A stretch of 52,671 nucleotides of DNA from Gemmatimonadota bacterium (GTDB lineage: Bacteria > Gemmatimonadota > Gemmatimonadetes > Gemmatimonadales > GWC2-71-9), in NCBI GenBank assembly GCA_039586875.1, contig JBDHJO010000004.1, positions 1 through 52,671 on the forward strand, written 5' to 3'. The position numbers and the translations under genes are program-made. The notes beneath the pieces were generated by a model. It was given only the letters and a program-made list of their open reading frames with translations, was not told the origin of the DNA and did not search any database. Shown here in pieces: positions 2,463-14,767 of this stretch (position 1 is the stretch's first letter; every line of letters begins with the position of its first letter).

Positions 2463-2541
2463 GCCACGACGACATCGGTCGTCGAGCGTTGTGACGACCA
2501 CCATCGACCATCATCACGTCATCCGAAGTTCAAAAAAACTA

Positions 2542-2609
2542 TTGCGCATCGGCACATCATTTCGTATCGTGTTGCGCAACACACACTTCCAATGGCATTG
2601 CTTTGCGCA
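2542..2609. promoter_or_regulatory. three copies of the heptamer TTGCGCA (2542-2548, 2572-2578, 2603-2609) in the lower-GC region upstream of the ATP-grasp operon
   Basis: Read directly from the sequence. Spacing is 30 and 31 bp. The core TGCGCA is palindromic, and the third copy contains the TTG start codon. Function is not established. Confidence 0.3.
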
Positions 2610-3682
2610 TAGGGCTCGCATACAACCAGCGACCGGACGACGTTGTGGCAGACCACGACGGCGAGCGTCGCACTACCTTCGAGCCTCTCTCCGATGCGTA
2701 CGTCGAGTGGGATGACGACGAGACGATCAGTGCGGTTGCGAACGCGTTGTCCGTCTTCGGTGAGGTCGTGCGCCTCGAAGCGATCGGTGATTTCCCCTCG
2801 CGTCTCCGCGACGCGGAGATCGACTTCCTGTTCAACATGGCGGAGGGCACGCACGGTCCGAACCGCGAAGCCCACGTCCCGGCGATTGCAGAGTTCTTCG
2901 ACATTCCCTACCTGGGCAGCGATCCGCTGACCCTCGGACTCTCCCTGCACAAGGTCCGCGCCAAGGAGGTCTTCCAGCAGCGCGGGATCCCCACGCCGGC
3001 ATATACGTGGCTCGCGAGTGTGGACGACTTGCCGATACTGGCGAACGGCCAGCGGTATCCCGTGTTCCTGAAACCCGCGTGGGAGGGATCGTCGAAGGGC
3101 ATTGCGGAAGCCAACTATGTGGAAGACGCCGAGCGTGCGCAGGCGCAAGCTCGCCACTTGCTGACGACCTACCAGCAGCCAGTGCTGGCCGAAGCGTATC
3201 TCCCCGGCGACGAGTTCACGGTCGCCATCCTCGGCAACGGCCGCGACGCACGTGCCTTGCCGATCATCCGCTATCGATTCGAAGGGTTGCCGGCCGAGGC
3301 ACTTCCGATCATGGGCTACGAGGCCAAGTGGAAGTGGGACGTCCCGGACAACCCGCTCGAGATCCTCGAGTGTCCGGCCCAGGTCGACGGCTTGACCGCT
3401 GACGGCATCGTCGAGACCGCCATTGCCGCGTACCACGCGCTGGGGTGCCGCGACTGGGCGCGCGTCGACATCCGACTCGACGGTGCGGGCACACCGCACG
3501 TCTTGGAAATCAACCCGCTGCCGGGGATCATTCCGGATCCCATCGCCAACAGCTGCTTCCCCTGTGCAGCCCTGGCGGCGGGCATGACATACGACGAGTT
3601 GATCCAGCGTGCCGTGCAGATCGCGTGGCGGCGAACGACGGGGCAGGACCTGACCGCTCTTCCACAAGGAGTTACATCCTGA
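2603..3682 (+). CDS. D-alanine--D-alanine ligase-like ATP-grasp enzyme (paralog 1)
   Basis: TTG start, 359 aa. It has FLKPAWEGSSKGI and the C-terminal ARVDIRLDGAGTPHVLEINPLPG block typical of Ddl-type ATP-grasp folds. Confidence 0.8.
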   Translation: MRIGLAYNQRPDDVVADHDGERRTTFEPLSDAYVEWDDDETISAVANALSVFGEVVRLEAIGDFPSRLRDAEIDFLFNMAEGTHGPNREAHVPAIAEFFDIPYLGSDPLTLGLSLHKVRAKEVFQQRGIPTPAYTWLASVDDLPILANGQRYPVFLKPAWEGSSKGIAEANYVEDAERAQAQARHLLTTYQQPVLAEAYLPGDEFTVAILGNGRDARALPIIRYRFEGLPAEALPIMGYEAKWKWDVPDNPLEILECPAQVDGLTADGIVETAIAAYHALGCRDWARVDIRLDGAGTPHVLEINPLPGIIPDPIANSCFPCAALAAGMTYDELIQRAVQIAWRRTTGQDLTALPQGVTS

Positions 3683-4671
3683 GAATCGCGGTCATCTACG
3701 ACAGCGGGGCCGACACCTGGACGCCTGAAGACATTCAGGCGGTGTTGGTGTCGGTACAGGGTATCTCTGCCGTACTCGCGGAGCGCAGCCACGAGGTCGT
3801 GCGGATTCCGGTGGACGGCGATCTCGCGTGGTTCGATGAGGTCCGGCGTGCGGATCTCGTTTTCAACCTGTGCGAGGGGATGGGCGGCGTGAGCAGGCTC
3901 GAGTACCCGGTGGCGGCCGCGATCGAGCTCGCGGGCATTCCGATGACGGGGACGTCGTCGTGGACGATGACGATTTGCCATCGCAAGCCGGTACTGAATG
4001 CACTGCTTGCCGGTTACGGGCTGCCCGTGCCCCGTTGGACGGTCCCGGGGCGGGGCGGGGATGCCGCGGACTTCCTCTTGCCGGCCATCGTCAAGCCGGC
4101 AGCGGAGGACGCCAGCATCGGCATCGAGCAGAGTTCCGTGGTCGCCACGCCGGAGGCACTCCAGCGTCGTGTCGCGCGGATGCAGGAGCGTCACGGCGAC
4201 GTCGTCGTTCAGGAATACGTGCCGGGGCGGGAGTTCAATGTCGGGTTTGTCGGCAACACGATTCTCCCGATCTCGGAGATCGACTTCTCCGATATGCCGA
4301 GCGGTGCGTGGCCGATCGTCTCCTTTGCCGGCAAGTGGCATGAAGACAGTGACGAGTTCGCAGGCACGCAGCCCGTGTGTCCGGCGGAGGTCACCCCGGG
4401 TGTCGCGCGCACGTTGCGCGACGTGGCGGCGGCGGCGTGGTCCGCGGTGGAGGGCAAGGGATACGGGCGCGTCGACCTGCGGCTCGATGCCGACGGGCAA
4501 CCGTGGATCCTCGAAGTCAATCCGAACCCAGATCTGTCGGACGATGCGGGGCTCGCCAATATGGCGCGGGCGGGCGGCTGGTCGTATGACGAGCTGGTGG
4601 CCAAGATCGTCGACGCGGCTGGTACCGCGCAGGATCAGCGCGATGCCCTGGCCGGAGTATCTGCGGCATGA
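3679..4671 (+). CDS. D-alanine--D-alanine ligase-like ATP-grasp enzyme (paralog 2)
   Basis: IVKPAAEDASIGI and GRVDLRLDADGQPWILEVNPNPD blocks are present. The N-terminus LRIAVIYD aligns with MRIGLAYN of paralog 1. AAGGAG lies at 3666-3671, followed by CTG at 3679, which overlaps the upstream stop (CTGA). An alternative GTG start is at 3625. Confidence 0.75.
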   Translation: MRIAVIYDSGADTWTPEDIQAVLVSVQGISAVLAERSHEVVRIPVDGDLAWFDEVRRADLVFNLCEGMGGVSRLEYPVAAAIELAGIPMTGTSSWTMTICHRKPVLNALLAGYGLPVPRWTVPGRGGDAADFLLPAIVKPAAEDASIGIEQSSVVATPEALQRRVARMQERHGDVVVQEYVPGREFNVGFVGNTILPISEIDFSDMPSGAWPIVSFAGKWHEDSDEFAGTQPVCPAEVTPGVARTLRDVAAAAWSAVEGKGYGRVDLRLDADGQPWILEVNPNPDLSDDAGLANMARAGGWSYDELVAKIVDAAGTAQDQRDALAGVSAA

Positions 4672-5189
4672 GTGCGACCGAGCTGGTGACGACGCTGGGC
4701 CCGCTCCGAGCGGCAGACCGGCAGCGCATTCCGGCCATGGTCGATGCCACCGGCGTCTTCCGGCCGGACGAGGTCGACGTGGCCGTCGAAGTGTTCGACG
4801 GTGCCGTGACACAACCTGGGGTCGATTACCACGGGATCGGGGCGTACGAGGATGATCGGCTCGTCGGTTTCGCCCTGTTCGGCCAGACGCCGTGCACCGT
4901 GGCCACGTGGGATCTCTACTGGATCGTCGTCGATCCGTCTGCGCAACGCGGCGGGGTCGGGCGACGCCTGATGAGTGCCGCCGAGCACGCGATCGCGGGA
5001 CACAACGGGACACTCGTCGTTGTCGAAACGTCGTCTCGCGATGACTACGAGCCGACGCGACGGTTTTACGAGTCCATCGGTTACGACCGAGCTGCGCGCA
5101 TTGCGCACTACTACGCGCCCAACGACGATCTCGTCGTATACACCAAGCTCCTCGATCCTCCCGAACAATCTGTGGGGCACTATGGCTGA
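4668..5189 (+). CDS. GNAT family N-acetyltransferase (173 aa)
   Basis: The ATG overlaps the upstream stop (ATGA). WIVVDPSAQRGGVGRRLM matches GNAT motif A (acetyl-CoA site). Confidence 0.8.
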   Translation: MSATELVTTLGPLRAADRQRIPAMVDATGVFRPDEVDVAVEVFDGAVTQPGVDYHGIGAYEDDRLVGFALFGQTPCTVATWDLYWIVVDPSAQRGGVGRRLMSAAEHAIAGHNGTLVVVETSSRDDYEPTRRFYESIGYDRAARIAHYYAPNDDLVVYTKLLDPPEQSVGHYG

Positions 5190-6351
5190 TTGGCAGAAAC
5201 TTCTGCACGAGCGCGGTATTCGGACGCTCCAACAACTCGTGGAGAAGTTTGGGGAAGAGCACTTCCCCGACCTTCCCCGGTTGCAGGCAGCGGTCGACAA
5301 CTTCGAGTTTCGCATCTCACCCCCGATGGTCGATCTGATCACGGAACCGGGCGATCCCATCTGGCGACAGTATGTGCCGGATCTGGACGAGCTCGACGTC
5401 GTCGACGGTGTCCTCGACAGCCTGGACGAGGAGGGTGACAGCCCGGTGCCGAACATTACGCACCGCTATCCGGACCGCGCGCTCTTCCTCGTGAGCCCGG
5501 TCTGTGCCGCATACTGCAGATTCTGTACTCGACGGCGGAAGGTCGGGGACCCCGAGAAGATCCCTCTGGCGCAGCTCGAGAGCGGATTTCAGTACCTGGA
5601 GGAGCACACCGAGATCCGGGATGTGATCTTGTCGGGTGGCGATCCGCTGTTGTTGTCGGATCGGCGGTTGGACCTCATTCTCGGACGGCTGCGGAAGATC
5701 CCGCACCTCGAGGTGATCCGCATCGGCTCGCGAGTGCCCTGCCACCTGCCGGAGCGCATTACGCCCGAGCTGTGTGACGTGCTGCGGAAGTACCACCCGC
5801 TGTACATCAACACACACTTCAATCACCCGGTCGAGCTCACCCCGGCGGCCGTCAAGGGGCTGGGCATGCTTGCCGATGCCGGCGTGCCTTTGGGGTGCCA
5901 GACGGTGCTTCTCACCGGCGTGAACGACGACGTCGAAGTGATGAAGGAGTTGGTCCACCGGTTGCTCGCGGCTCGCGTCCGTCCGTACTACATCTTCATG
6001 TGCGACAACGTCGCAGGGGTCGAGCACTTCAAGTCGACCGTCGAGAAGGGCCTGGAAATCATCCGCGGCCTTCGGGGCTGGACCAGTGGCCTGGCCGTAC
6101 CGCATTTCGTGATCGACGCACCTGGTGGCGGCGGCAAGATCCCGCTCCTCCCCGAGTACGTCGAGGAAATCACCGAAGCTGAGGTCGTCATGCGGAACTA
6201 CCAGGGCGATCGGTTCCGGTATCCGCAGCCTCGTCAGGAAGCGCTCATCGCCGCCGGCTTGGCCGAACCGGAATACGGAATGCTCCGCATGGTCGAGCAA
6301 TCGGTCGGCCCCGGTAACGGGAACGGCAAACACAATGCGGGCCTGGGGTGA
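5182..6351 (+). CDS. KamA-family radical-SAM/PLP aminomutase (lysine 2,3-aminomutase-like)
   Basis: CAAYCRFCTRR carries the CxxxCxxC motif (5503-5526). VIDAPGGGGK is the PLP-lysine block, and there is a YYIFMCDNVAG block. The ATG at 5182 overlaps the GNAT stop by 8 nt. Confidence 0.9.
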   Translation: MADWQKLLHERGIRTLQQLVEKFGEEHFPDLPRLQAAVDNFEFRISPPMVDLITEPGDPIWRQYVPDLDELDVVDGVLDSLDEEGDSPVPNITHRYPDRALFLVSPVCAAYCRFCTRRRKVGDPEKIPLAQLESGFQYLEEHTEIRDVILSGGDPLLLSDRRLDLILGRLRKIPHLEVIRIGSRVPCHLPERITPELCDVLRKYHPLYINTHFNHPVELTPAAVKGLGMLADAGVPLGCQTVLLTGVNDDVEVMKELVHRLLAARVRPYYIFMCDNVAGVEHFKSTVEKGLEIIRGLRGWTSGLAVPHFVIDAPGGGGKIPLLPEYVEEITEAEVVMRNYQGDRFRYPQPRQEALIAAGLAEPEYGMLRMVEQSVGPGNGNGKHNAGLG

Positions 6352-6363
6352 TACCCCAGGCCC
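6339..6363. terminator. 10-bp perfect hairpin between the convergent kamA-like and EF-G-like genes
   Basis: GGGCCTGGGG-tgata-CCCCAGGCCC. The kamA-like stop codon sits in the loop. There is no strong U-tract on either strand. Confidence 0.5.
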
Positions 6364-6387
6364 GCGTCGTATTTCGCGATGTGCCAA

Positions 6388-8484
6388 CTACGCGCGCTCT
6401 TCCTCCAACTCCTTCTCGCGCTCGGCGCGGATCTTGTCGGCCGCTTCCGCCGGCACTTCCTGGTACGTGGAAAACGACCAATGGAAGGTACCGCGCCCGT
6501 GCGTCATCGAATGAAGCTGCGTCGCATAGCGGTACATCTCGGCTTCGGGAACGAACGCATTGACCTTGGTCAGACGACCATCTGCCTCGCTCCCGAGGAT
6601 CTGGCCGCGACGTGAGGAGAGATCGCCCATCACCTCCCCGAGGTTCTCGTCCGGCGTCCACACCTCGACCTCGAGGATCGGCTCCAAGAGCACCGGCTTG
6701 GCCTTGGCTGCCACGTTCTTGAACGCGAGGATGCCCGCCATCTTGAATGACTGCTCCGAGCTGTCCACGTCGTGATAGGACCCGTCGTAGCACTCGACCT
6801 TGAAGTCGACCATCGGATAACTCGCGATCACGCCGCGGACCGCCGCCTCTTGAATCCCCTTGTCGACCGCGGGGATGTATTTGTTGGGGATCACGCCGCC
6901 TTTGATCTGATCCTCGAACTCGTAGCCGCTTCCACGAGGCAACGGTGCGAGCCGGATCCAACAGTCGCCGAACTGGCCACGTCCTCCGGTTTGCTTCTTG
7001 TGACGGCCTTGCCCCTCCGCCTTCCCTTTCAGGGTCTCGCGATAGGCGACCTTCGGTTTGCCGAGCTCCGCGTGCACCCCGAACTTGCGCTCCAGGCGAC
7101 CGATGACGATCTCGAGGTGCCGCTCGCCACGACCACCAACGAGGGTCTGGCGTAGTTCCGGATTGAACTTGTGCGTGAACGTCGGGTCTTCCTCGTGCAG
7201 CTTATGGAGCCCGGTCGACAGCTTCTCTTCCTCCCCGCGCTGCTTGACCTCCACGGACAGGACCGTGAGCGGTTCCGGGAACGGAATCTTGGGAAGCACG
7301 ACCGGGTGCCCCTCGGTCGAGAGCGTGTCGTTCGTGTGCGTGTCCTTGAGCTTGGCCACCACCCCGATGTCGCCGACATGGAGCTCCGGCACCTCTGTTC
7401 GCTCTTTCCCCTGCGCAACTGATAGGTGATTGAGCTTCTCGTGCAGGCTCCGGGGCGCATTGTACACGCTCGCGCCGTTCGCAAGCTTGCCGGCGTAGAT
7501 GCGAAACAGGGTCACGTCGCCGACATGTGGCTCGGACACGGTCTTGAACACCTGCGCAACGAACGGTGCGTCGTCACTCGCCTCGACTTCGACGGCTTCA
7601 GCACTACCCCACTTTTCCGCAGTGACCGCGGGTCGGTCGGACGGTGCCGGCGCCAGTTCCGTGAGCTTGGACAGCAGCGCGCGCATGCCGTACGTCGCGG
7701 TCGCCGATCCACAGAGCAGCGGGCAGATCTCACCGGCAGCGACCGCCTTCTTCATGGCTGCGATCGCCTCGTCCCGAGTGATCTCCTCGCCGCCCAAATA
7801 CCGCTCGAGCAGATCGTCGTTCGTCGTGGCGATCGTCTCCATCAGTTCCTGTGAGTACTGCTCCAACCGCTCGCGGTATTCCTCGGGCACGTCGATCTCG
7901 TCGTATTCCCCGGTGCTCGTGCCCGACTTGTACATGTGGCATTTCTTCGAGAAGAGGTTGATGATGCCACGGAAGTCGGGACCCTCGCCGACCGGAATCT
8001 CGATCGGGACAACGGCGCTCGTGAGGTGGTCCTTGATGTCCGCGTAGACCTTCTCGAAATCCGCGTTTTCCTTGTCGAGCAGCGACAGGAAGAAGAACCG
8101 CGGAATCCCGCGATCGGTTGCGTACTCCCACACCTTCTCGGTTCCGACCTCCACGCCGGCCGTGGCGCTCACGACTACCAGAGCGGAGTCGGCGGCGGCG
8201 ATGCCGGCGAGGGCATCGCCGATGAAGTCGAGGTATCCCGGGGTGTCGATGAGGTTGATCTTGACGCCGTTCCACTCGGCGTGAGCCAGGGCAAGGCTGA
8301 TGGAATACTGGCGTTCGATCTCGTCTGGAGTGTAGTCCGTAAGCGCGGTGCCCTGCTGTACCGATCCATGTCTGGAGCTGCTTCCGGCCACGAACGCGAG
8401 CGCATCGACCAGTGTCGTCTTGCCGCTTGCGCCGTGGCCGACGACCGCTACGTTGCGGATCTTATCTCCTGTGTAGACCTTCAC
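6388..8484 (-). CDS. elongation factor G paralog (EFG-II-like, divergent GTPase motifs)
   Basis: P-loop VGHGASGKTT and DTPG are present, with full five-domain EF-G collinearity. The start is taken at the GTG at 8484, 7 nt after GGAGG. The listed start at 8541 lacks an RBS. Confidence 0.9.
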   Translation of the reverse strand: MKVYTGDKIRNVAVVGHGASGKTTLVDALAFVAGSSSRHGSVQQGTALTDYTPDEIERQYSISLALAHAEWNGVKINLIDTPGYLDFIGDALAGIAAADSALVVVSATAGVEVGTEKVWEYATDRGIPRFFFLSLLDKENADFEKVYADIKDHLTSAVVPIEIPVGEGPDFRGIINLFSKKCHMYKSGTSTGEYDEIDVPEEYRERLEQYSQELMETIATTNDDLLERYLGGEEITRDEAIAAMKKAVAAGEICPLLCGSATATYGMRALLSKLTELAPAPSDRPAVTAEKWGSAEAVEVEASDDAPFVAQVFKTVSEPHVGDVTLFRIYAGKLANGASVYNAPRSLHEKLNHLSVAQGKERTEVPELHVGDIGVVAKLKDTHTNDTLSTEGHPVVLPKIPFPEPLTVLSVEVKQRGEEEKLSTGLHKLHEEDPTFTHKFNPELRQTLVGGRGERHLEIVIGRLERKFGVHAELGKPKVAYRETLKGKAEGQGRHKKQTGGRGQFGDCWIRLAPLPRGSGYEFEDQIKGGVIPNKYIPAVDKGIQEAAVRGVIASYPMVDFKVECYDGSYHDVDSSEQSFKMAGILAFKNVAAKAKPVLLEPILEVEVWTPDENLGEVMGDLSSRRGQILGSEADGRLTKVNAFVPEAEMYRYATQLHSMTHGRGTFHWSFSTYQEVPAEAADKIRAEREKELEEERA

Positions 8485-8585
8485 GGTCACACCTCCTTCA
8501 ATTGGGACCCGGAACATGGACCCGGGCACAGTAGGTCGCAAGGGCGCTCCGGCCCGGCCATACGCCCCACCATCTGGAGGCTGAA

Positions 8586-9299
8586 ATGAGGCTGCAAGAC
8601 GTCGTCTGCGTAGTGACCGGCGCCACCGAGGGGATCGGGCGTGCCACGGCGTTTGCCCTGGGTGAACGCGGGGCCCGCCTGGCTGTGTGCGCTCGCACGG
8701 GCCCCCGGATCGATGCGCTGTTGACCGACCTGCGGGCTGCTGGGTGCGAAGCGGTGGGGACGAGCTGCGACGTGAGCGATGAGACAGCGGTGCAGGCCTT
8801 CACCGCGTTCGTTCATGAGGAACTTGGCCCGGCACGGATTCTCGTCAACAACGCGGGCCTCGCACACTTCGGGCCGACCCTCGAGATGTCGACGGCGGCA
8901 TTCGACGAGATTATGGCGGTCAACGTTCGCGGCACGTTCCTCATGAGCCGTGCGTTTCTGCCGGACATGCTGGATCACTCCGGCGGCCATATCGTGAACA
9001 TCGCCAGCCTGGCCGGGCGCAATCCCGTGCCACAGGGAGCGGTCTATGCAGCGGCGAAGCACGCCGTCTTGGGCTTTTCGAAATCCCTGTTTGCAGAGGT
9101 GCGGACCAAAGGAGTCCGGGTCACCGCAATCTGCCCGGGGTCCGTGGTGACACCGTTCTTCGAGAAGTCCGGCGGCACCATCGAGCGGCCGGAGGCCAAA
9201 CTGCAGCCCGAAGACATCGCCGACACCGTGATCGGCGTGCTCGAGTTGCCGGACCGCGCGCTCATCTCCGAACTGGACATCCGCCCGGCCAACCCGTAG
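8586..9299 (+). CDS. SDR family oxidoreductase
   Basis: TGATEGIGRA is the Rossmann motif and YAAAKHAV is the YxxxK catalytic motif. GGAGG lies upstream of the ATG. Confidence 0.9.
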   Translation: MRLQDVVCVVTGATEGIGRATAFALGERGARLAVCARTGPRIDALLTDLRAAGCEAVGTSCDVSDETAVQAFTAFVHEELGPARILVNNAGLAHFGPTLEMSTAAFDEIMAVNVRGTFLMSRAFLPDMLDHSGGHIVNIASLAGRNPVPQGAVYAAAKHAVLGFSKSLFAEVRTKGVRVTAICPGSVVTPFFEKSGGTIERPEAKLQPEDIADTVIGVLELPDRALISELDIRPANP

Positions 9300-9301
9300 C
9301 A

Positions 9302-10669
9302 CTAGGCCACGTACACCGCCTTGATATTCACGAATTCGCGGATGCCCTCGGCCGCCAGCTCCCGACCATAACCCGATTCTCGCACGCCCCCGAAGGGCAG
9401 GCGCGGATCCGATCGCACGAAGGCGTTCACGAAGCAGGCACCGGCGTCCAGTTCGTCCTTGGCGATCCGCGTGCCGCGCTGGACGTCCCCCGTGAACACC
9501 GCGGCCCCGAGCCCGAACGGTGAATCGTTGGCGATCCGGATCGCGTCGGCTTCATCACGGGCACCGATGACGGCTGCCACCGGTCCGAACAGTTCGTCGT
9601 CGTACGCCGGCATGCCGGGTTGGACACCGGTCAGGACGCTCGGTGGATAGAATGCCCCGGCCCCTTCCGGGACTTCGCAGCCGAGCAGCACCCTCGCGCC
9701 AGCGTGAATCGAACGCCGCACCTGCTCGTGCAATTCGTCCCGAAGGTCCTCGCGAGCCTGCGGACCCACGTCAGTGTCGTCGTCGAGCGGGTCACCCATT
9801 CGATGGGCGCGCATGGCATCGACGAAGAGGCGTTCGAATGCGTCTCGCACCGCGTCGACGACGACAAAGCGCTTGGCGGCGATGCAGCTCTGACCGCTGT
9901 TGATGAGACGGGAGGTCGCGCACGCCGACGCAGCCGACTCGAGATCTGCATCGTCGAGAATGATGTATGGGTCACTGCCGCCGAGCTCCAGCACACTCTT
10001 CTTCAACATGCGGCCTGCCGTTCCTGCAACGGCACGGCCCGCCGGACCGCTACCGGTCAGCGTGACGGCGCGAACCACCGGATGTTCGATGACGGCCTCG
10101 ACCCCGGCGGATCCGACAATGAGGGACCGGAAGACATCGTTCGGGAATCCCGCCTCGCGGAAGACCGACTCGATGGCCACCGCCGAACCCATCACGTTGG
10201 ATGCGTGTTTGAGCACGCCGGCGTTTCCCGCCATCAACCCGGGGGCCGCGAACCGAAAGACCTGCCACAACGGAAAATTCCACGGCATGACGGCGAGCAC
10301 GACACCGAGCGGCCGATAGGCGATACCGCTCCAGCTCGCGTCGGTCCCTACCGGCACATCGGCGAGGAACGCCTCGGCATGCTCTGCGTAGTAATCGCAC
10401 ACCCAGGCACACTTCTCGACCTCCGCACGACCCTGCACCACCGGCTTGCCCATCTCCAGGGCCATGAGTCGGGCCAACTCGTCGGTGCGTGCCCGGAGGA
10501 CTGCGGCAGCGGCGCTCATCAACCGCGATCGGACGACGAAAGGGGTGCGCCGCCACTCCTCATACGCCGCGGCCACCTTCACCAGCGTGGCGGACACATC
10601 TTCAGGTGACATCTCCCGGTACCGATCGAGAACCGATCCGTCCGCGGGATTGACGGTGATGATCGCCAT
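9302..10669 (-). CDS. NAD(P)-dependent aldehyde dehydrogenase, succinate-semialdehyde dehydrogenase-like
   Basis: ELGGSDP and the catalytic NSGQSCIAAKRF block are present. The second ATG (MAIITVNP) follows a G/A-rich RBS. An alternative start is at 10699. Confidence 0.85.
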   Translation of the reverse strand: MAIITVNPADGSVLDRYREMSPEDVSATLVKVAAAYEEWRRTPFVVRSRLMSAAAAVLRARTDELARLMALEMGKPVVQGRAEVEKCAWVCDYYAEHAEAFLADVPVGTDASWSGIAYRPLGVVLAVMPWNFPLWQVFRFAAPGLMAGNAGVLKHASNVMGSAVAIESVFREAGFPNDVFRSLIVGSAGVEAVIEHPVVRAVTLTGSGPAGRAVAGTAGRMLKKSVLELGGSDPYIILDDADLESAASACATSRLINSGQSCIAAKRFVVVDAVRDAFERLFVDAMRAHRMGDPLDDDTDVGPQAREDLRDELHEQVRRSIHAGARVLLGCEVPEGAGAFYPPSVLTGVQPGMPAYDDELFGPVAAVIGARDEADAIRIANDSPFGLGAAVFTGDVQRGTRIAKDELDAGACFVNAFVRSDPRLPFGGVRESGYGRELAAEGIREFVNIKAVYVA

Positions 10670-10715
10670 CCGCTGATCCCCCTCCCCCAACTCCTCCACG
10701 GATACGCCAGGCGCG

Positions 10716-10922
10716 TCAGTCTGCCTTGTTGGTACGAATTCCCAGAATAGAGTACAACGCGCACCATCCGCTGAGTCCGGTGATCAACGGCAGGAAGCCC
10801 AAGTACTTGAAGACCGTACCGAGCGTGCCGGTGACGATCCCGCCCCATCCGAGGATGAGCAAGACGATGCCGACGACGACGCGCAGTGCGCGTTCCCAAT
10901 TCGCTTCGTTCACGAATGCCAT
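10716..10922 (-). CDS. DUF2892 (YgaP-like) small membrane protein
   Basis: This 68-aa C-terminal part of the listed 221-aa ORF has two hydrophobic helices and a GWCALYSILGIRT motif. The remainder of the listed ORF is antisense to the permease gene. Confidence 0.7.
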   Translation of the reverse strand: MAFVNEANWERALRVVVGIVLLILGWGGIVTGTLGTVFKYLGFLPLITGLSGWCALYSILGIRTNKAD

Positions 10923-11066
10923 GTGCGATACCTCACATCGGGAGGACGACAAATGCGACTGGCCGTTGCGGCCACCCCGCCTTCTCACAAACAGTAGCGT
11001 CCCGACCGTACACGAGCCAGCGCCCTCGCTTGCTTCGAACGACAGGCGGCGCAATACTCGGCAACC

Positions 11067-12446
11067 ATGAACACCGCACCGCAACCCACCGTTCCCGCTC
11101 GCCACGGATACCGCCGGTCCTTGGGGCTCTTCGACGCCTCGATGCTCGTTATTGGGGGCATCATCGGCGCGGGGATCTTCTTGAACCCGGCAGTCGTAGC
11201 ACAACGGGTGCCGTCGGCAGGGGTCGCGTTCCTCGCCTGGGCCATCGGAGGCGGGATCGCCCTCATCGGCGCGCTCTGCTTTGCCGAGCTCGGTGCTCGT
11301 CGGCCGCTGGCCGGGGGTGGTTACGTCTACTTGCGCGATGCGTTCGGCAGCCTGCCGGCCTTCTTGTACGGATGGACACAACTCCTCGTGATCAACAGCG
11401 GCGGCATCGCCGCCGTCGCCTATACGTTCGCGACCTACGCCGTGGCACTCGGCGGTGGCGGCAGCGACGAACTCACCACAGGCCTCGCGATTACGACGAT
11501 CGTCTTGCTCTCAGTCATCAACTACTTCGGGGTGCGACCCGGCGCGATCGTGCAAAACGTGTTCACCATCCTCAAACTGGCGGCGTTGGGCGGCCTCATC
11601 GCGGCCGGCCTCATACTCGCTCCTGGGGCTGAGACCCAAGCCGTCCCGACCGGAACACCCGCACGCACCGGACTCGTTACCGCCATTGGGGCTGCATTGA
11701 TTCCGGTCCTCTTTGCCTATGGCGGGTGGCAGAGCACGAACTTCGTCGCCGAAGAACTGCGCGATGCCGAGCGCACACTGCCTCGCGCACTCATCCTTGG
11801 AGTCACGACGGTCGTCACCGTCTACCTCCTGGTGAACGTGGTCTACCTCGGTACCCTGGGTTTGAATGGCCTTGCCGGTAGCAGTGCGCCCGCGTCCGAT
11901 GTCATGGCAACGCTGCTCGGGAAGAGCGGATCGGTAGCCATCACCGTGGGGATCGTGATCTCGACGTTCGGCTTCCTCAACCTCGCCGTACTGGCATCGC
12001 CCCGGATGTACCAGGCGATGGCAGCGGATGGTGTGTTCTTCGGCGCGGCGGCGCGGCTTCACCCCAAACACCGCGTCCCTGCCGTCGCACTTGGCATCCA
12101 GGCGGGCTGGGCCATTCTCCTGCTGTCATCGAAGACGTACGGCCAACTCCTCGACTACGTGGTCTTCGGCGATTGGATCTTTTTCGGCCTCGTCGTCGCG
12201 ACGCTGTTCGTCTATCGCCGCCGGGAGCCCGATCGAGCAGTGCAGTTCCGCTCACCGGGATATCCCGTTCTGCCGCTCCTCTTCGTCAGTGCAGCCGCCT
12301 TTACGGTCCTGAGCACAGTTGTCGCCGATCTTCGGAACGCCATCTTGGGCGGTGGTCTCATTCTCATGGGAATTCCGGTATTCTTCGCATGGCGCTGGCG
12401 CCGGCGCACCACCGCTGCTCGACCCCGATCCCCTACTCATTCCTGA
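11067..12446 (+). CDS. APC family amino acid permease
   Basis: 459 aa with about 12 hydrophobic segments and an N-terminal GGIIGAGIF signature. Confidence 0.9.
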   Translation: MNTAPQPTVPARHGYRRSLGLFDASMLVIGGIIGAGIFLNPAVVAQRVPSAGVAFLAWAIGGGIALIGALCFAELGARRPLAGGGYVYLRDAFGSLPAFLYGWTQLLVINSGGIAAVAYTFATYAVALGGGGSDELTTGLAITTIVLLSVINYFGVRPGAIVQNVFTILKLAALGGLIAAGLILAPGAETQAVPTGTPARTGLVTAIGAALIPVLFAYGGWQSTNFVAEELRDAERTLPRALILGVTTVVTVYLLVNVVYLGTLGLNGLAGSSAPASDVMATLLGKSGSVAITVGIVISTFGFLNLAVLASPRMYQAMAADGVFFGAAARLHPKHRVPAVALGIQAGWAILLLSSKTYGQLLDYVVFGDWIFFGLVVATLFVYRRREPDRAVQFRSPGYPVLPLLFVSAAAFTVLSTVVADLRNAILGGGLILMGIPVFFAWRWRRRTTAARPRSPTHS

Positions 12447-12967: not shown

Positions 12968-14767
12968 ATGGAACACACTCTCGTCGGATTGGCATCCATC
13001 GTCATTCTCGGCATCGCCGCGCAGTGGCTTTCGTGGCGCCTGCGTATGCCGGCAATCCTCCTGCTGTTGGCCGTGGGATTCATCGCCGGGCCAGTCACCG
13101 GCTTCCTCGATCCGGGGGCGCTGCTCGGGGACCTCCTCTTCCCGATCGTGTCGCTATCCGTTGCCGTGATCCTCTTCGAGGGGGGGTTGAGCCTGGATGT
13201 CGCCGAGCTTCGCGATATTGGCCGGGTCATCGGACGGTTGATGACCGTAGGGGTGGTCGTGACATGGGCACTGACGACCGCCTTCGCGGTCATGCTGCTC
13301 GACCTCGACATCGGGCTCGCTCTGCTGTTCGGTGCCATCCTGGTCGTGACCGGGCCGACGGTGATCATCCCACTGCTGCGACACATCCGGCCGACTGCGC
13401 GCGTCGGTTCCGCCGTCAAATGGGAGGGCATCGTCAACGACCCGGTCGGTGCCATTCTCGCGGTGCTCGTATTCGAGGCCATCATCGTCGGTGGTATGGA
13501 GGCGGGCCTCAGTGTCGTGGTCCCGGGCATTCTGCGGGCGACCGTGCTGGGCACCGGGCTCGGGTTGGCGGGCGCTGGTCTGGTCGTCCTCCTGCTGGAC
13601 CGGCACTGGATTCCGGACTACCTCGAGAGCCCGGTAGCGCTCGGTTTGGTGTTCCTGGCCTTTGCGCTCGCGAATCGCATGCAGCAGGAATCGGGCTTGC
13701 TGGCTGTGACGATCATGGGATCCGCACTCGCCAGCCAGCAGCGCGTGAGCATGCACCGGATCGTCGCGTTCAAGGAGAATCTCAGGGTCTTGTTGATCGC
13801 GACCCTGTTCATCATTCTCGCCGCGCGCTTACCGCTCCGCGACCCGGATTATTACAGCGCCGGCAGCCTGCTCTTCTTGGCGTCCCTGATCCTCGTGGTG
13901 CGACCGGCAGCCGTGGCCGCAGCGACGTGGGGCTCGAGATTCACGTGGCGCGAGCGCGTGTTCATCGCCGCGATGGCACCGCGAGGGATCGTCGCGGCAG
14001 CGGTCGTCTCGGTGTTCGCCATCGAGTTGACGGAGGTCGGGCGCACGGAGGCTGCACGCCTTGTCCCGCTGATCTTCCTGGTGATCGTCGGTACGGTCGG
14101 CGTCTACGGCCTTGTCACCCCGCTTCTCGCGCGAGCGCTCGCCGTCGCGCAGCCGAATGCCACGGGCATCCTCTTCGTCGGTGCGAGCGCCTGGGTTCGG
14201 GATGTAGCACAACTCCTCGTACACGCCGATGTCCAGGTCCTGCTGGCCGATTCCAACTGGAACAACGTCGCTGCCGCGCGGCGTGCCGGCTTGCCGGCCT
14301 TTTACGGCAACATGCTGACCGAAGCGGCGATCGAAGACATCGAATTCAAGCTCGACGGAATAGGTCACTTCCTGGCGCTCACACCCAACGACGAGGTGAA
14401 CGCCCTCGCGACGCTGCACTTCCAGGAGCTCTTCGATCGCTCCCGAATGTTCCAGTTGCCCCCAGTGGAAAGTGAACGGGATCGACGCCGCCGTGGGATT
14501 CCGCAGCACCTCCACGGCCGTTTTCTCTTTCATCGCGACGCAACCCACGCACGCATTGCCGAGCGGATCGAGCAGGGAGCCATCATCAAACGCACGCGGT
14601 TGACCAAGGAATTCGATTGGGCGGCGTTTCACGACTATTACGGGGAGCGCGCTCTGCCGTTGTTCGTCATCAAGGAGTCGGGCGACGTTCTGGTGCTCAC
14701 GGCGGCGACCGCCGTCGAACCGAAGCCGGGACAGGCCGTCATCAGTCTCGTTGACGACAGGAACTGA
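12968..14767 (+). CDS. cation:proton antiporter (CPA1/NhaP type) with a C-terminal cytoplasmic regulatory domain
   Basis: The N-terminal ~400 aa are polytopic with typical Na_H_Exchanger blocks (ILFEGGLSL, VTGPTVIIPLL). A soluble TrkA-like tail follows. Confidence 0.9.
   Translation: MEHTLVGLASIVILGIAAQWLSWRLRMPAILLLLAVGFIAGPVTGFLDPGALLGDLLFPIVSLSVAVILFEGGLSLDVAELRDIGRVIGRLMTVGVVVTWALTTAFAVMLLDLDIGLALLFGAILVVTGPTVIIPLLRHIRPTARVGSAVKWEGIVNDPVGAILAVLVFEAIIVGGMEAGLSVVVPGILRATVLGTGLGLAGAGLVVLLLDRHWIPDYLESPVALGLVFLAFALANRMQQESGLLAVTIMGSALASQQRVSMHRIVAFKENLRVLLIATLFIILAARLPLRDPDYYSAGSLLFLASLILVVRPAAVAAATWGSRFTWRERVFIAAMAPRGIVAAAVVSVFAIELTEVGRTEAARLVPLIFLVIVGTVGVYGLVTPLLARALAVAQPNATGILFVGASAWVRDVAQLLVHADVQVLLADSNWNNVAAARRAGLPAFYGNMLTEAAIEDIEFKLDGIGHFLALTPNDEVNALATLHFQELFDRSRMFQLPPVESERDRRRRGIPQHLHGRFLFHRDATHARIAERIEQGAIIKRTRLTKEFDWAAFHDYYGERALPLFVIKESGDVLVLTAATAVEPKPGQAVISLVDDRN

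Follow-up and report, generated by a model that had tools for sequence, protein, structure and literature searches.

To our knowledge β-lysine has few known fates, namely the N-acetyl-β-lysine osmolyte, the modification of elongation factor P (EF-P), a few antibiotics and lysine fermentation. Among the described systems, AblA/AblB of methanogens and KamA/YodP of Bacillus subtilis place a lysine aminomutase beside a GNAT N-acetyltransferase, with β-lysine as the committed intermediate. In the N-acetylglutaminylglutamine amide (NAGGN) pathway of Sinorhizobium and Pseudomonas, Ngg, a fusion of a GNAT and an ATP-grasp ligase, works with AsnO to make an N-acetylated amide solute without ribosome or nonribosomal peptide synthetase. 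Glutathionylspermidine and trypanothione synthetases and carnosine synthase provide the precedent for ATP-grasp enzymes that acylate polyamines or ligate β-amino acids. Here we describe a four-gene operon, lig1-lig2-GNAT-KamA, at positions 2603-6351 of a 52,671-nucleotide stretch (contig JBDHJO010000004.1 of assembly GCA_039586875.1; the whole stretch is called the window below) from a member of the Gemmatimonadota, an abundant and poorly studied soil phylum. It unites an aminomutase, two ATP-grasp ligases and an N-acetyltransferase, that is, known enzyme families in an uncharacterised and widespread combination. At a probability of about 0.5, the four proteins would form a self-contained module in which β-lysine made by KamA passes through two ATP-dependent amide ligations and an N-acetylation to give a small, probably cytoplasmic conjugate, while our confidence in any specific product is low.

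The operon and the ribosome-binding site inside it are laid out as follows.

2603..3682, plus strand: lig1, Ddl-like ATP-grasp ligase, 359 aa, TTG start (open reading frame (ORF) listing and direct reading)
3667..3672, plus strand: AAGGAG Shine-Dalgarno sequence for lig2, within the 3' end of lig1 (read directly; kept in L094)
3679..4671, plus strand: lig2, Ddl-like ATP-grasp ligase paralogous to lig1, 330 aa, CTG start overlapping the lig1 stop
4668..5189, plus strand: small GNAT N-acetyltransferase, 173 aa (ORF listing and direct reading)
5182..6351, plus strand: KamA-family radical-SAM/PLP aminomutase, predicted lysine 2,3-aminomutase, 389 aa

The initial annotation had placed four co-directional genes here, each overlapping the next, and had given them these same domain assignments. 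The genes are confirmed by the ORF listing and by reading of the sequence, the overlaps were read exactly as claimed (CTGA at 3679-3682, ATGA at 4668-4671 and ATGGCTGA at 5182-5189), and the four assignments hold in Pfam and NCBIfam. The ATGA and 8-nt overlaps recur in the relatives L001 and L004. Since all three junctions are start/stop overlaps and are conserved in relatives, the four genes are a translationally coupled operon. The start of lig2 deserves a comment, as it is a CTG codon, the only position at which this gene can begin. AAGGAG lies 6 nt upstream of it, both CTGA and AAGGAG are preserved in L094 (lig2 start at L094 3330-3332), an independent metagenome assembly of 85% identity, and the homologous codon is ATG in the 67%-identical relative L006, which together argue that this non-canonical start is real. 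JGI/ENA gene calls set the lig2 start far upstream and so produce a false long overlap between lig1 and lig2.

The combination of genes is strongly conserved. Relatives of lig1 number more than 6000 in the databases at E ≤ 1e-10, many of them named 'D-alanine-D-alanine ligase'; at E < 1e-30 they form about 830 clusters (50% identity), and a scan built from a 9-sequence alignment found them in at least 593 species-level genomes (one genome per species). We mapped the four proteins onto the best 80 of these at least 593 loci, 63 of which had enough downstream sequence. The order lig1-lig2-GNAT-KamA is kept in 46 of the 63; an adjacent KamA is missing in 7, the GNAT is missing in 5 and the order is permuted in 3. 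The same-order block is found in Gemmatimonadota, Ignavibacteria (Stygiobacter, Melioribacter), Bacteroidota and Kryptonia, and permuted blocks in Planctomycetota, Auribacterota and Desulfovibrio. A search with the acetyltransferase of PDB entry 2R7H, discussed below, identified the order KamA-lig-lig-GNAT in Desulfovibrio mangrovi (CP104208.1), in Oleidesulfovibrio and on other contigs. CP070716.1 is a further genome that bears the module. In Desulfovibrio/Oleidesulfovibrio the block directly follows a sigma-54-dependent activator of the response-regulator type (L085 2857-4293; L086 2874-4310), which suggests regulated rather than constitutive expression in these organisms. Because the flanks outside Gemmatimonadota are unrelated housekeeping genes, the four genes are a conserved functional unit, and they recur in hundreds of species that represent six bacterial phyla or more. 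The block, the conservation of which the initial annotation had proposed to survey, reaches wider than it stated, across phyla, in permuted orders and as gene fusions. Within Gemmatimonadota the module appears to be near-core. The Ignavibacteria neighbours (RecG, PlsY, GpsA, IspD, NAD kinase and thioredoxin) were considered and set aside as housekeeping synteny outside the module. Also set aside were the lig1 relatives on rhizobial symbiosis plasmids (32-36% identity, single-copy), which are too distant and in too different a context to inform on it; one of them (L175, pNGR234a 207279-208289) sits beside a CapA-family gene and the S. medicae relative beside an MFS transporter, and they are annotated only as 'ATP-grasp domain-containing protein'.

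Gene fusions show which partners belong together. Many proteins of 600-720 aa are lig1-lig2 fusions, KamA is fused in front of lig1 in P0131, P0219 and P0222, and the reverse arrangement, lig1-KamA, is found in P0177. The locus L091 encodes just two proteins, a KamA-lig1 fusion and a lig2-GNAT fusion, and L093 encodes a KamA-lig1 fusion followed by separate lig2 and GNAT. Minimal loci with KamA and lig1 exist as well. From the KamA-lig1 and lig2-GNAT fusions it follows that lig1 most likely acts beside the aminomutase product and lig2 beside the acetyltransferase. At two loci with KamA and lig1, L120 and L137 (5533-10534), lig2 and GNAT are absent and two ORFs of about 100 aa, an unassigned 214-aa ORF and a YkuD L,D-transpeptidase gene come next. 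In a metagenome version of the operon, a 174-aa protein with a CxxCxxCC motif (YkgJ-like) is encoded between KamA and the ligases (L088 2671-3195).

KamA has the Pfam domains Radical_SAM and LAM_C and is 51% identical (E 7e-109) to the lysine 2,3-aminomutase (LAM) of Clostridium subterminale (PDB 2A5H). Its residues C108/C112/C115, R117, D275, D312 and K319 correspond to C125/C129/C132, R134, D293, D330 and K337 of LAM, and the iron-sulfur (Fe-S), pyridoxal phosphate (PLP) and substrate-binding residues are kept in 67/67 operon-linked homologues from several phyla, with a single K-to-R change. In the published LAM structure Arg134, Asp293 and Asp330 reportedly hold the carboxylate and the epsilon-ammonium of lysine. 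As these lysine-binding residues are kept in the operon-linked homologues, the substrate of KamA is likely to be basic, most simply lysine, and its product β-lysine. The generic KamA family model TIGR00238 is the only NCBIfam model that KamA passes (279 against a cut-off of 199). The closest of the specific models is the AblA equivalog TIGR03820, with a score of 430.7 under its cut-off of 525.4; scores for the glutamate 2,3-aminomutase (383.2 vs 650), arginine 2,3-aminomutase (319.5 vs 600) and EpmB (219.2 vs 369.3) models also stay under their cut-offs. Glutamate 2,3-aminomutase reportedly has a Lys/Asn pair, which is absent from KamA, where both positions are Asp. In one Gemmatimonadales locus (L043 10700-12088) the usual place of KamA after the GNAT is taken by a 462-aa paralogue, 28% identical to KamA, which keeps the Fe-S cysteines, Arg134, Asp293 and Asp330, has the PLP lysine changed to Arg and finds no Pfam match at E ≤ 1e-3.

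The two ligases are paralogues of each other (32% identity) and both contain the Ddl C-terminal ATP-grasp domain PF07478 (E 2e-30 in lig1 and 8e-28 in lig2), with an additional short TTL-family match in lig2. Their nearest solved structures are of the Ddl/VanA type at about 30% identity. E. coli DdlB, residues 57-305 of which agree with the search output, was aligned with 88 sequences of lig1 and 83 of lig2. The equivalents of DdlB K97, K144, E187, K215, R255, D257, E270 and N272 are kept in 88/88 lig1 and at least 79/83 lig2 sequences, so that both proteins have the fold and the ATP, Mg and catalytic Arg residues that define the ATP-grasp superfamily. With the ATP/Mg/acyl-phosphate machinery intact, both ligases should be active. 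The substrate sites are another matter. DdlB His63 is replaced by an invariant Glu (Glu81 in lig1) and Tyr216 by Trp (Trp243 in lig1) in both ligases, Leu282 is Cys318 in lig1, and lig2 has the further changes Ser150Ala, Gly276Asp (an invariant Asp), Ser281Ala and Leu282Gly; neither ligase thus retains the D-Ala-site set His63, Ser150, Tyr216, Gly276, Ser281 and Leu282. The N-terminal GGxSxE motif of Ddl gives way to a variable insert followed by AE(W/F)D. DdlB Glu15, the residue that binds the amino group of the acyl donor, has a kept equivalent in lig1, Glu35. The acidic Glu at the His63 position in both ligases, together with the Asp at the Gly276 position of lig2, would fit the binding of a second ammonium group. 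All Ddl, Van and related NCBIfam models are far below cut-off for both proteins: the best Ddl model, NF002378, gives 155.6 bits for lig1 and 126.4 for lig2 against 243, and TIGR01205 gives 132.8 and 115.2 against 245.65. The RimK model matches at E 1e-6 only, far below its cut-off. With scores so far under the Ddl cut-offs and the D-Ala-site residues changed, lig1 and lig2 are, judged from their sequences, not housekeeping Ddl enzymes, a grouping that the initial annotation had named as one that would count against its reading. In their genomic context they are found with thyA-folA and the elongation factor G (EF-G) gene and not with mur/fts (dcw) genes, and no further Ddl-like gene was found within the 52.7-kb window.

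The GNAT shows above-cut-off matches to PF13508, PF00583 and PF13673 and has the hallmarks of the GNAT superfamily. With 41% identity (E 1e-30) it matches 2R7H, a Desulfovibrio protein solved by structural genomics and entered as 'putative D-alanine N-acetyltransferase'; this name seems to have been guessed from the Ddl-like genes beside it, and our literature search for the 2R7H protein found no paper or assay. Its best NCBIfam match is RimI, at 43 bits against a cut-off of 86 (E 4e-11), AAC(6') models are below cut-off too, and the AblB model TIGR03827 gives no match even at E ≤ 1. By these comparisons the GNAT is not AblB-like.

The strongest hint at the nature of the product comes from a second type of operon. 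In Thermodesulfobacteriota-type genomes (L063 2837-7449 and L071), lig1 and lig2 that are 50% and 39% identical to the window proteins follow, in an overlapping operon, a deoxyhypusine synthase (DHS)-like gene, agmatinase and pyruvoyl arginine decarboxylase (PvlArgDC). This lig1 is closer to that of the window than the Ignavibacteria lig1 is, and further sister operons of the same kind were found in L095-L116, which brings them to 24 loci. The DHS-like protein scores at the cut-off of the deoxyhypusine synthase model and is near the NCBIfam models 'homospermidine biosynthesis' and '1,9-bis(guanidino)-5-aza-nonane synthase'. A metagenome scan with the sister-operon lig1 found at least 563 contigs with relatives, among which three operon types recur (ArgDC, arginine decarboxylase).

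Type A, lig1-lig2-GNAT-KamA: about 45 loci
Type B, (DHS)-agmatinase-ArgDC-lig1-lig2, often then a methyltransferase: 22 loci
Hybrid, DHS-ArgDC-(weak third ATP-grasp)-lig1-lig2-GNAT-methyltransferase-GNAT: 4 loci

The methyltransferase that often follows type B operons is of the S-adenosylmethionine-dependent kind and is accompanied by GT4 glycosyltransferases. The hybrid operons (L118, L121 at 4439-10671, L132 and L133) encode a protein of 306 aa whose ATP-grasp match stays below threshold, and they lack KamA. KamA and the polyamine genes share a locus in 0/115 and 0/28 cases. We looked for residues that separate the KamA-type from the polyamine-type ligases and found essentially none, a single group-conserved position differing between types A and B. 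In type B the same two ligases seem to be attached to a pathway for homospermidine, and the sister operons point to a diamine or polyamine-like scaffold. In addition, a fusion of about 590 aa between a GNAT and an HDAC domain of the acetylpolyamine-amidohydrolase type is encoded beside three unrelated KamA-type loci (L085 8629-10386; L088 5211-7004, inside the operon; L127 4813-6702) and hints at a cycle of acetylation and deacetylation.

How could the four enzymes work together then? KamA, as a radical-SAM/PLP enzyme with the conserved residues described, would convert L-lysine to β-lysine (3,6-diaminohexanoate). The KamA-lig1 fusions and the loci with KamA and lig1 only suggest that lig1 would use ATP to form an acyl-phosphate and make the first amide bond, one that involves β-lysine. 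The second bond, assigned to lig2 on the basis of the lig1-lig2 and lig2-GNAT fusions, would be chemically different; the second-substrate site of lig2, with its invariant Asp, is unlike those of lig1 and Ddl. GNAT, from its fusion to lig2, would then acetylate a remaining free amine with acetyl-CoA, and in the lineages with the GNAT-HDAC fusion the acetyl group would probably be removed again. The two amino groups of β-lysine are held on a four-carbon spacer, the 1,4-diaminobutane skeleton of putrescine and of the ends of homospermidine. In the version that we favour, β-lysine would play the part of a 1,4-diamine (it amounts to a carboxymethyl-putrescine) and its amino groups would be acylated, so that the product would be an acetylated aminoacyl-diamine, nearer to a modified polyamine or a solute than to an ordinary peptide. 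We favour this scaffold because ligases with the same conserved residues are found in the sister operons, where arginine decarboxylase, agmatinase and the DHS-like gene replace KamA; the mutually exclusive KamA and ArgDC/agmatinase/DHS sets would most simply be alternative suppliers of 1,4-diamines for the same ligases.

The initial annotation had proposed that a β-amino acid is ligated into a di- or oligo-(pseudo)peptide and N-acetylated. Ligation and acetylation have gained from the KamA-lig1 and lig2-GNAT fusions and the intact lysine-binding residues of KamA. We would differ on an ordinary peptide: since essentially identical ligases are part of arginine-to-homospermidine operons, β-lysine may instead be attached to a polyamine or itself provide a scaffold of the 1,4-diamine kind. 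More tentatively, and as a possibility rather than an expectation, the lig1-lig2 pair could define a widespread and so far undescribed class of metabolites. These would be 1,4-diamines that carry aminoacyl groups and often N-acetyl or methyl groups as well, with a scaffold that comes either from lysine (via KamA and β-lysine) or from arginine (via agmatine to putrescine/homospermidine). In Gemmatimonadota, Ignavibacteria/Bacteroidota, Planctomycetota and sulfate reducers they would fill a core function, polyamine-like or protective against stress. If so, the lysine 2,3-aminomutase reaction would serve to turn a 1,5-diamine into a 1,4-diamine skeleton.

Several observations weigh against the module as we propose it. 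The substrates of the ligases are assigned only from the DdlB residue mapping and the gene context, and KamA, being under the AblA cut-off, may act on another basic amino acid. The 7/63 loci without an adjacent KamA and the 5/63 without GNAT indicate that neither is strictly required beside the ligases. In Gemmatimonadota the block is embedded in a long synteny (thyA-folA upstream, EF-G downstream), so conservation inside this phylum alone is weak evidence. Finally, if type-B genomes carry KamA elsewhere, the argument from alternative scaffolds fails and a β-lysyl-polyamine becomes the more likely product.

Such a β-lysyl-polyamine is the main alternative, if a somewhat unlikely one in our view. 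Here lig1 would join the carboxylate of β-lysine to putrescine, agmatine or homospermidine, lig2 would add a second unit, GNAT would cap an amine, and the two operon types would supply the two halves of the molecule. The identity of conserved residues between type A and type B ligases, the kept Glu35 in lig1 for the amino group of an acyl donor, the KamA-lig1 fusions and KamA+lig1-only loci all agree with it, and an accessory gene of the HDAC/acetylpolyamine-amidohydrolase type fits a polyamine-like product. However, it needs a KamA elsewhere in the type-B genomes, and the fact that KamA and the polyamine genes are never together in 177 loci fits alternatives better than partners. It is unlikely that the target is a protein, with the ligases attaching β-lysine or other residues in a RimK/TTL-like manner or by an EpmA-independent β-lysylation of EF-P, and the RimI-like GNAT acetylating. 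The KamA relatives of the EpmB group do feed β-lysylation of EF-P, RimI is the best match of the GNAT and lig2 has its short TTL match, the DHS-like gene of the sister operons represents the other known EF-P/IF5A chemistry, and an EF-G paralogue adjoins the operon in Gemmatimonadota. But tblastn with an E. coli EF-P query found no efp in the window or in 1.3 Mb from 93 related loci, the EpmB model reaches only 219 of the required 369 and the operon has no EpmA-like gene, no small ORF that might encode an acceptor is conserved, ArgDC and agmatinase accompany the DHS-like gene as they do for homospermidine synthesis, and the EF-G adjacency is Gemmatimonadota synteny which is not shared by Ignavibacteria or Desulfovibrio.

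An involvement of the cell envelope, in which the Ddl-like enzymes would build a β-lysine-containing dipeptide or side-chain for peptidoglycan or another envelope polymer, is quite improbable. It could account for the Ddl/VanA-type nearest structures, for the YkuD L,D-transpeptidase downstream of KamA-lig1 in L120 and L137, for the GT4 glycosyltransferases downstream of type-B operons and for the Wzz and NusG-like genes upstream in Kryptonia, but such neighbours are confined to particular lineages, mur/dcw, flippase and transporter genes show no consistent linkage, none of the four proteins has an envelope-related domain and the D-Ala-site residues are changed. The plain N-epsilon-acetyl-β-lysine osmolyte pathway of the AblA/AblB kind, with two Ddl genes adjacent by chance, has the right composition of aminomutase and acetyltransferase, AblA is the model closest to KamA, and genes for Kef-type Na+/H+ exchangers are found nearby in the window and in L091. 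It is nevertheless very improbable and largely refuted, as fusions join the ligases with KamA and with GNAT, both ligases fail all Ddl cut-offs and the site-residue comparison, the 173-aa GNAT has no AblB match, and some loci combine ligases and KamA without any GNAT. Least credible is a catabolic role with KamA at the first step of lysine fermentation. KamA is indeed the clostridial entry enzyme, but this idea is unsupported: no gene for β-lysine 5,6-aminomutase, 3,5-diaminohexanoate dehydrogenase or a downstream step is in the operon or conserved beside it, and ATP-consuming ligases are anabolic. A defence system was considered too and dropped, none of the four proteins having a PADLOC match. 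The acetylated conjugate of β-lysine stays our preferred product type.

Two further features delimit the operon in the window, the G+C content of which is about 65%.

2463..2602, plus strand: intergenic leader between folA and lig1, 140 bp, presumed promoter region
6337..6365, no strand assigned: hairpin with a 13-bp stem, GCGGGCCTGGGGT-ATC-ACCCCAGGCCCGC, over the KamA stop codon (terminator scan and sequence read)

Upstream of the operon are thyA and folA, followed by the 140-bp gap. A sigma-70 consensus scan of this leader gave no site, and no plausible precursor peptide or small plus-strand ORF was found in the leader or beside the block in the window. Rfam returned nothing at gathering thresholds for the whole window and, in E-value mode, only a chance snoRNA match; a riboswitch or leader RNA upstream of lig1 was considered and set aside on this result. 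The hairpin is likely a bidirectional terminator common to the operon and the convergent EF-G gene (6388-8541, minus strand; NF009381, 870 bits) that directly follows. This is probably a second EF-G copy and has the same position in the Gemmatimonadota loci L001 and L004, not in other phyla. Further on, at 8586-12446, there are genes for a short-chain dehydrogenase/reductase (SDR), an aldehyde dehydrogenase (minus strand), a small ORF and an APC-family amino-acid permease, of which the SDR and aldehyde dehydrogenase are syntenic in L001 and L004 as well. At 12968-14767, 6.6 kb beyond the downstream end of the operon, there is a gene for a Na+/H+ exchanger of the Kef type that contains a TrkA_N domain, and L091 has a similar gene (4684-6306) beside the pair of fused proteins KamA-lig1 and lig2-GNAT. 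This proximity may be a coincidence or may hint at an ion/osmotic context.

The module would add another, taxonomically broad fate to those of β-lysine, and it can be studied in bacteria that are cultivable and partly genetically tractable, as it is also found in Desulfovibrio/Oleidesulfovibrio, Melioribacter and Stygiobacter. Once the product is identified, thousands of proteins now annotated 'D-alanine--D-alanine ligase' would be named correctly, and it would become clear how a large ATP-grasp clade selects its substrates. A connection between β-amino-acid and polyamine metabolism would be made as well, provided that the link to the sister operons of the homospermidine type is upheld.

As the initial annotation had stated, there seems to be no characterised pathway of this composition: we found none in the full-text literature or in curated HMM libraries, where an earlier in-silico mention is possible, and the Pelobacter genome paper mentions ablAB only. 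Each of the known systems shares a part of the design. The microviridin/graspetide pathways differ in that their ligases are RimK-like and not of the Ddl type, and the precursor peptide that the initial annotation had noted as lacking is indeed absent, as neither the window nor the other phyla show a conserved small ORF next to the block. The EpmA/EpmB/EpmC system also leads from a KamA-family aminomutase via β-lysine to an amide bond, on EF-P, but its ligase is a LysRS paralogue and not an ATP-grasp enzyme, the EpmB model does not recognise KamA, and no efp is linked in the loci searched. With the Ddl/VanA family lig1 and lig2 have in common the fold and the ATP/Mg/acyl-phosphate catalytic residues, in contrast to the altered D-Ala-site residues, scores about 100 bits below the family cut-offs and a location outside the dcw cluster. 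Glutathionylspermidine and trypanothione synthetases and carnosine synthase belong to other ATP-grasp subfamilies, with homology detected only at the superfamily level and without linkage to an aminomutase or GNAT. NAGGN synthesis follows a similar logic, an N-acetyltransferase and an ATP-grasp ligase being fused or adjacent, but the sequences are unrelated (TIGR03103, E = 0.16), and our module has no amidotransferase and has instead a radical-SAM aminomutase and two ligases. The 2R7H protein is an orthologue-level relative of the operon GNAT, its gene family being found within the KamA-lig-lig-GNAT operon of Desulfovibrio/Oleidesulfovibrio. AblA/AblB and KamA/YodP likewise have an aminomutase with the same lysine-binding residues as KamA of the window beside a GNAT. 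The differences from AblA/AblB lie in the operon GNAT, which is of the 173-aa RimI/2R7H type, and in KamA, which is below the AblA cut-off; what sets the module apart from both these systems is that here two ATP-grasp ligases are an integral part, in some genomes fused to KamA and to GNAT themselves.

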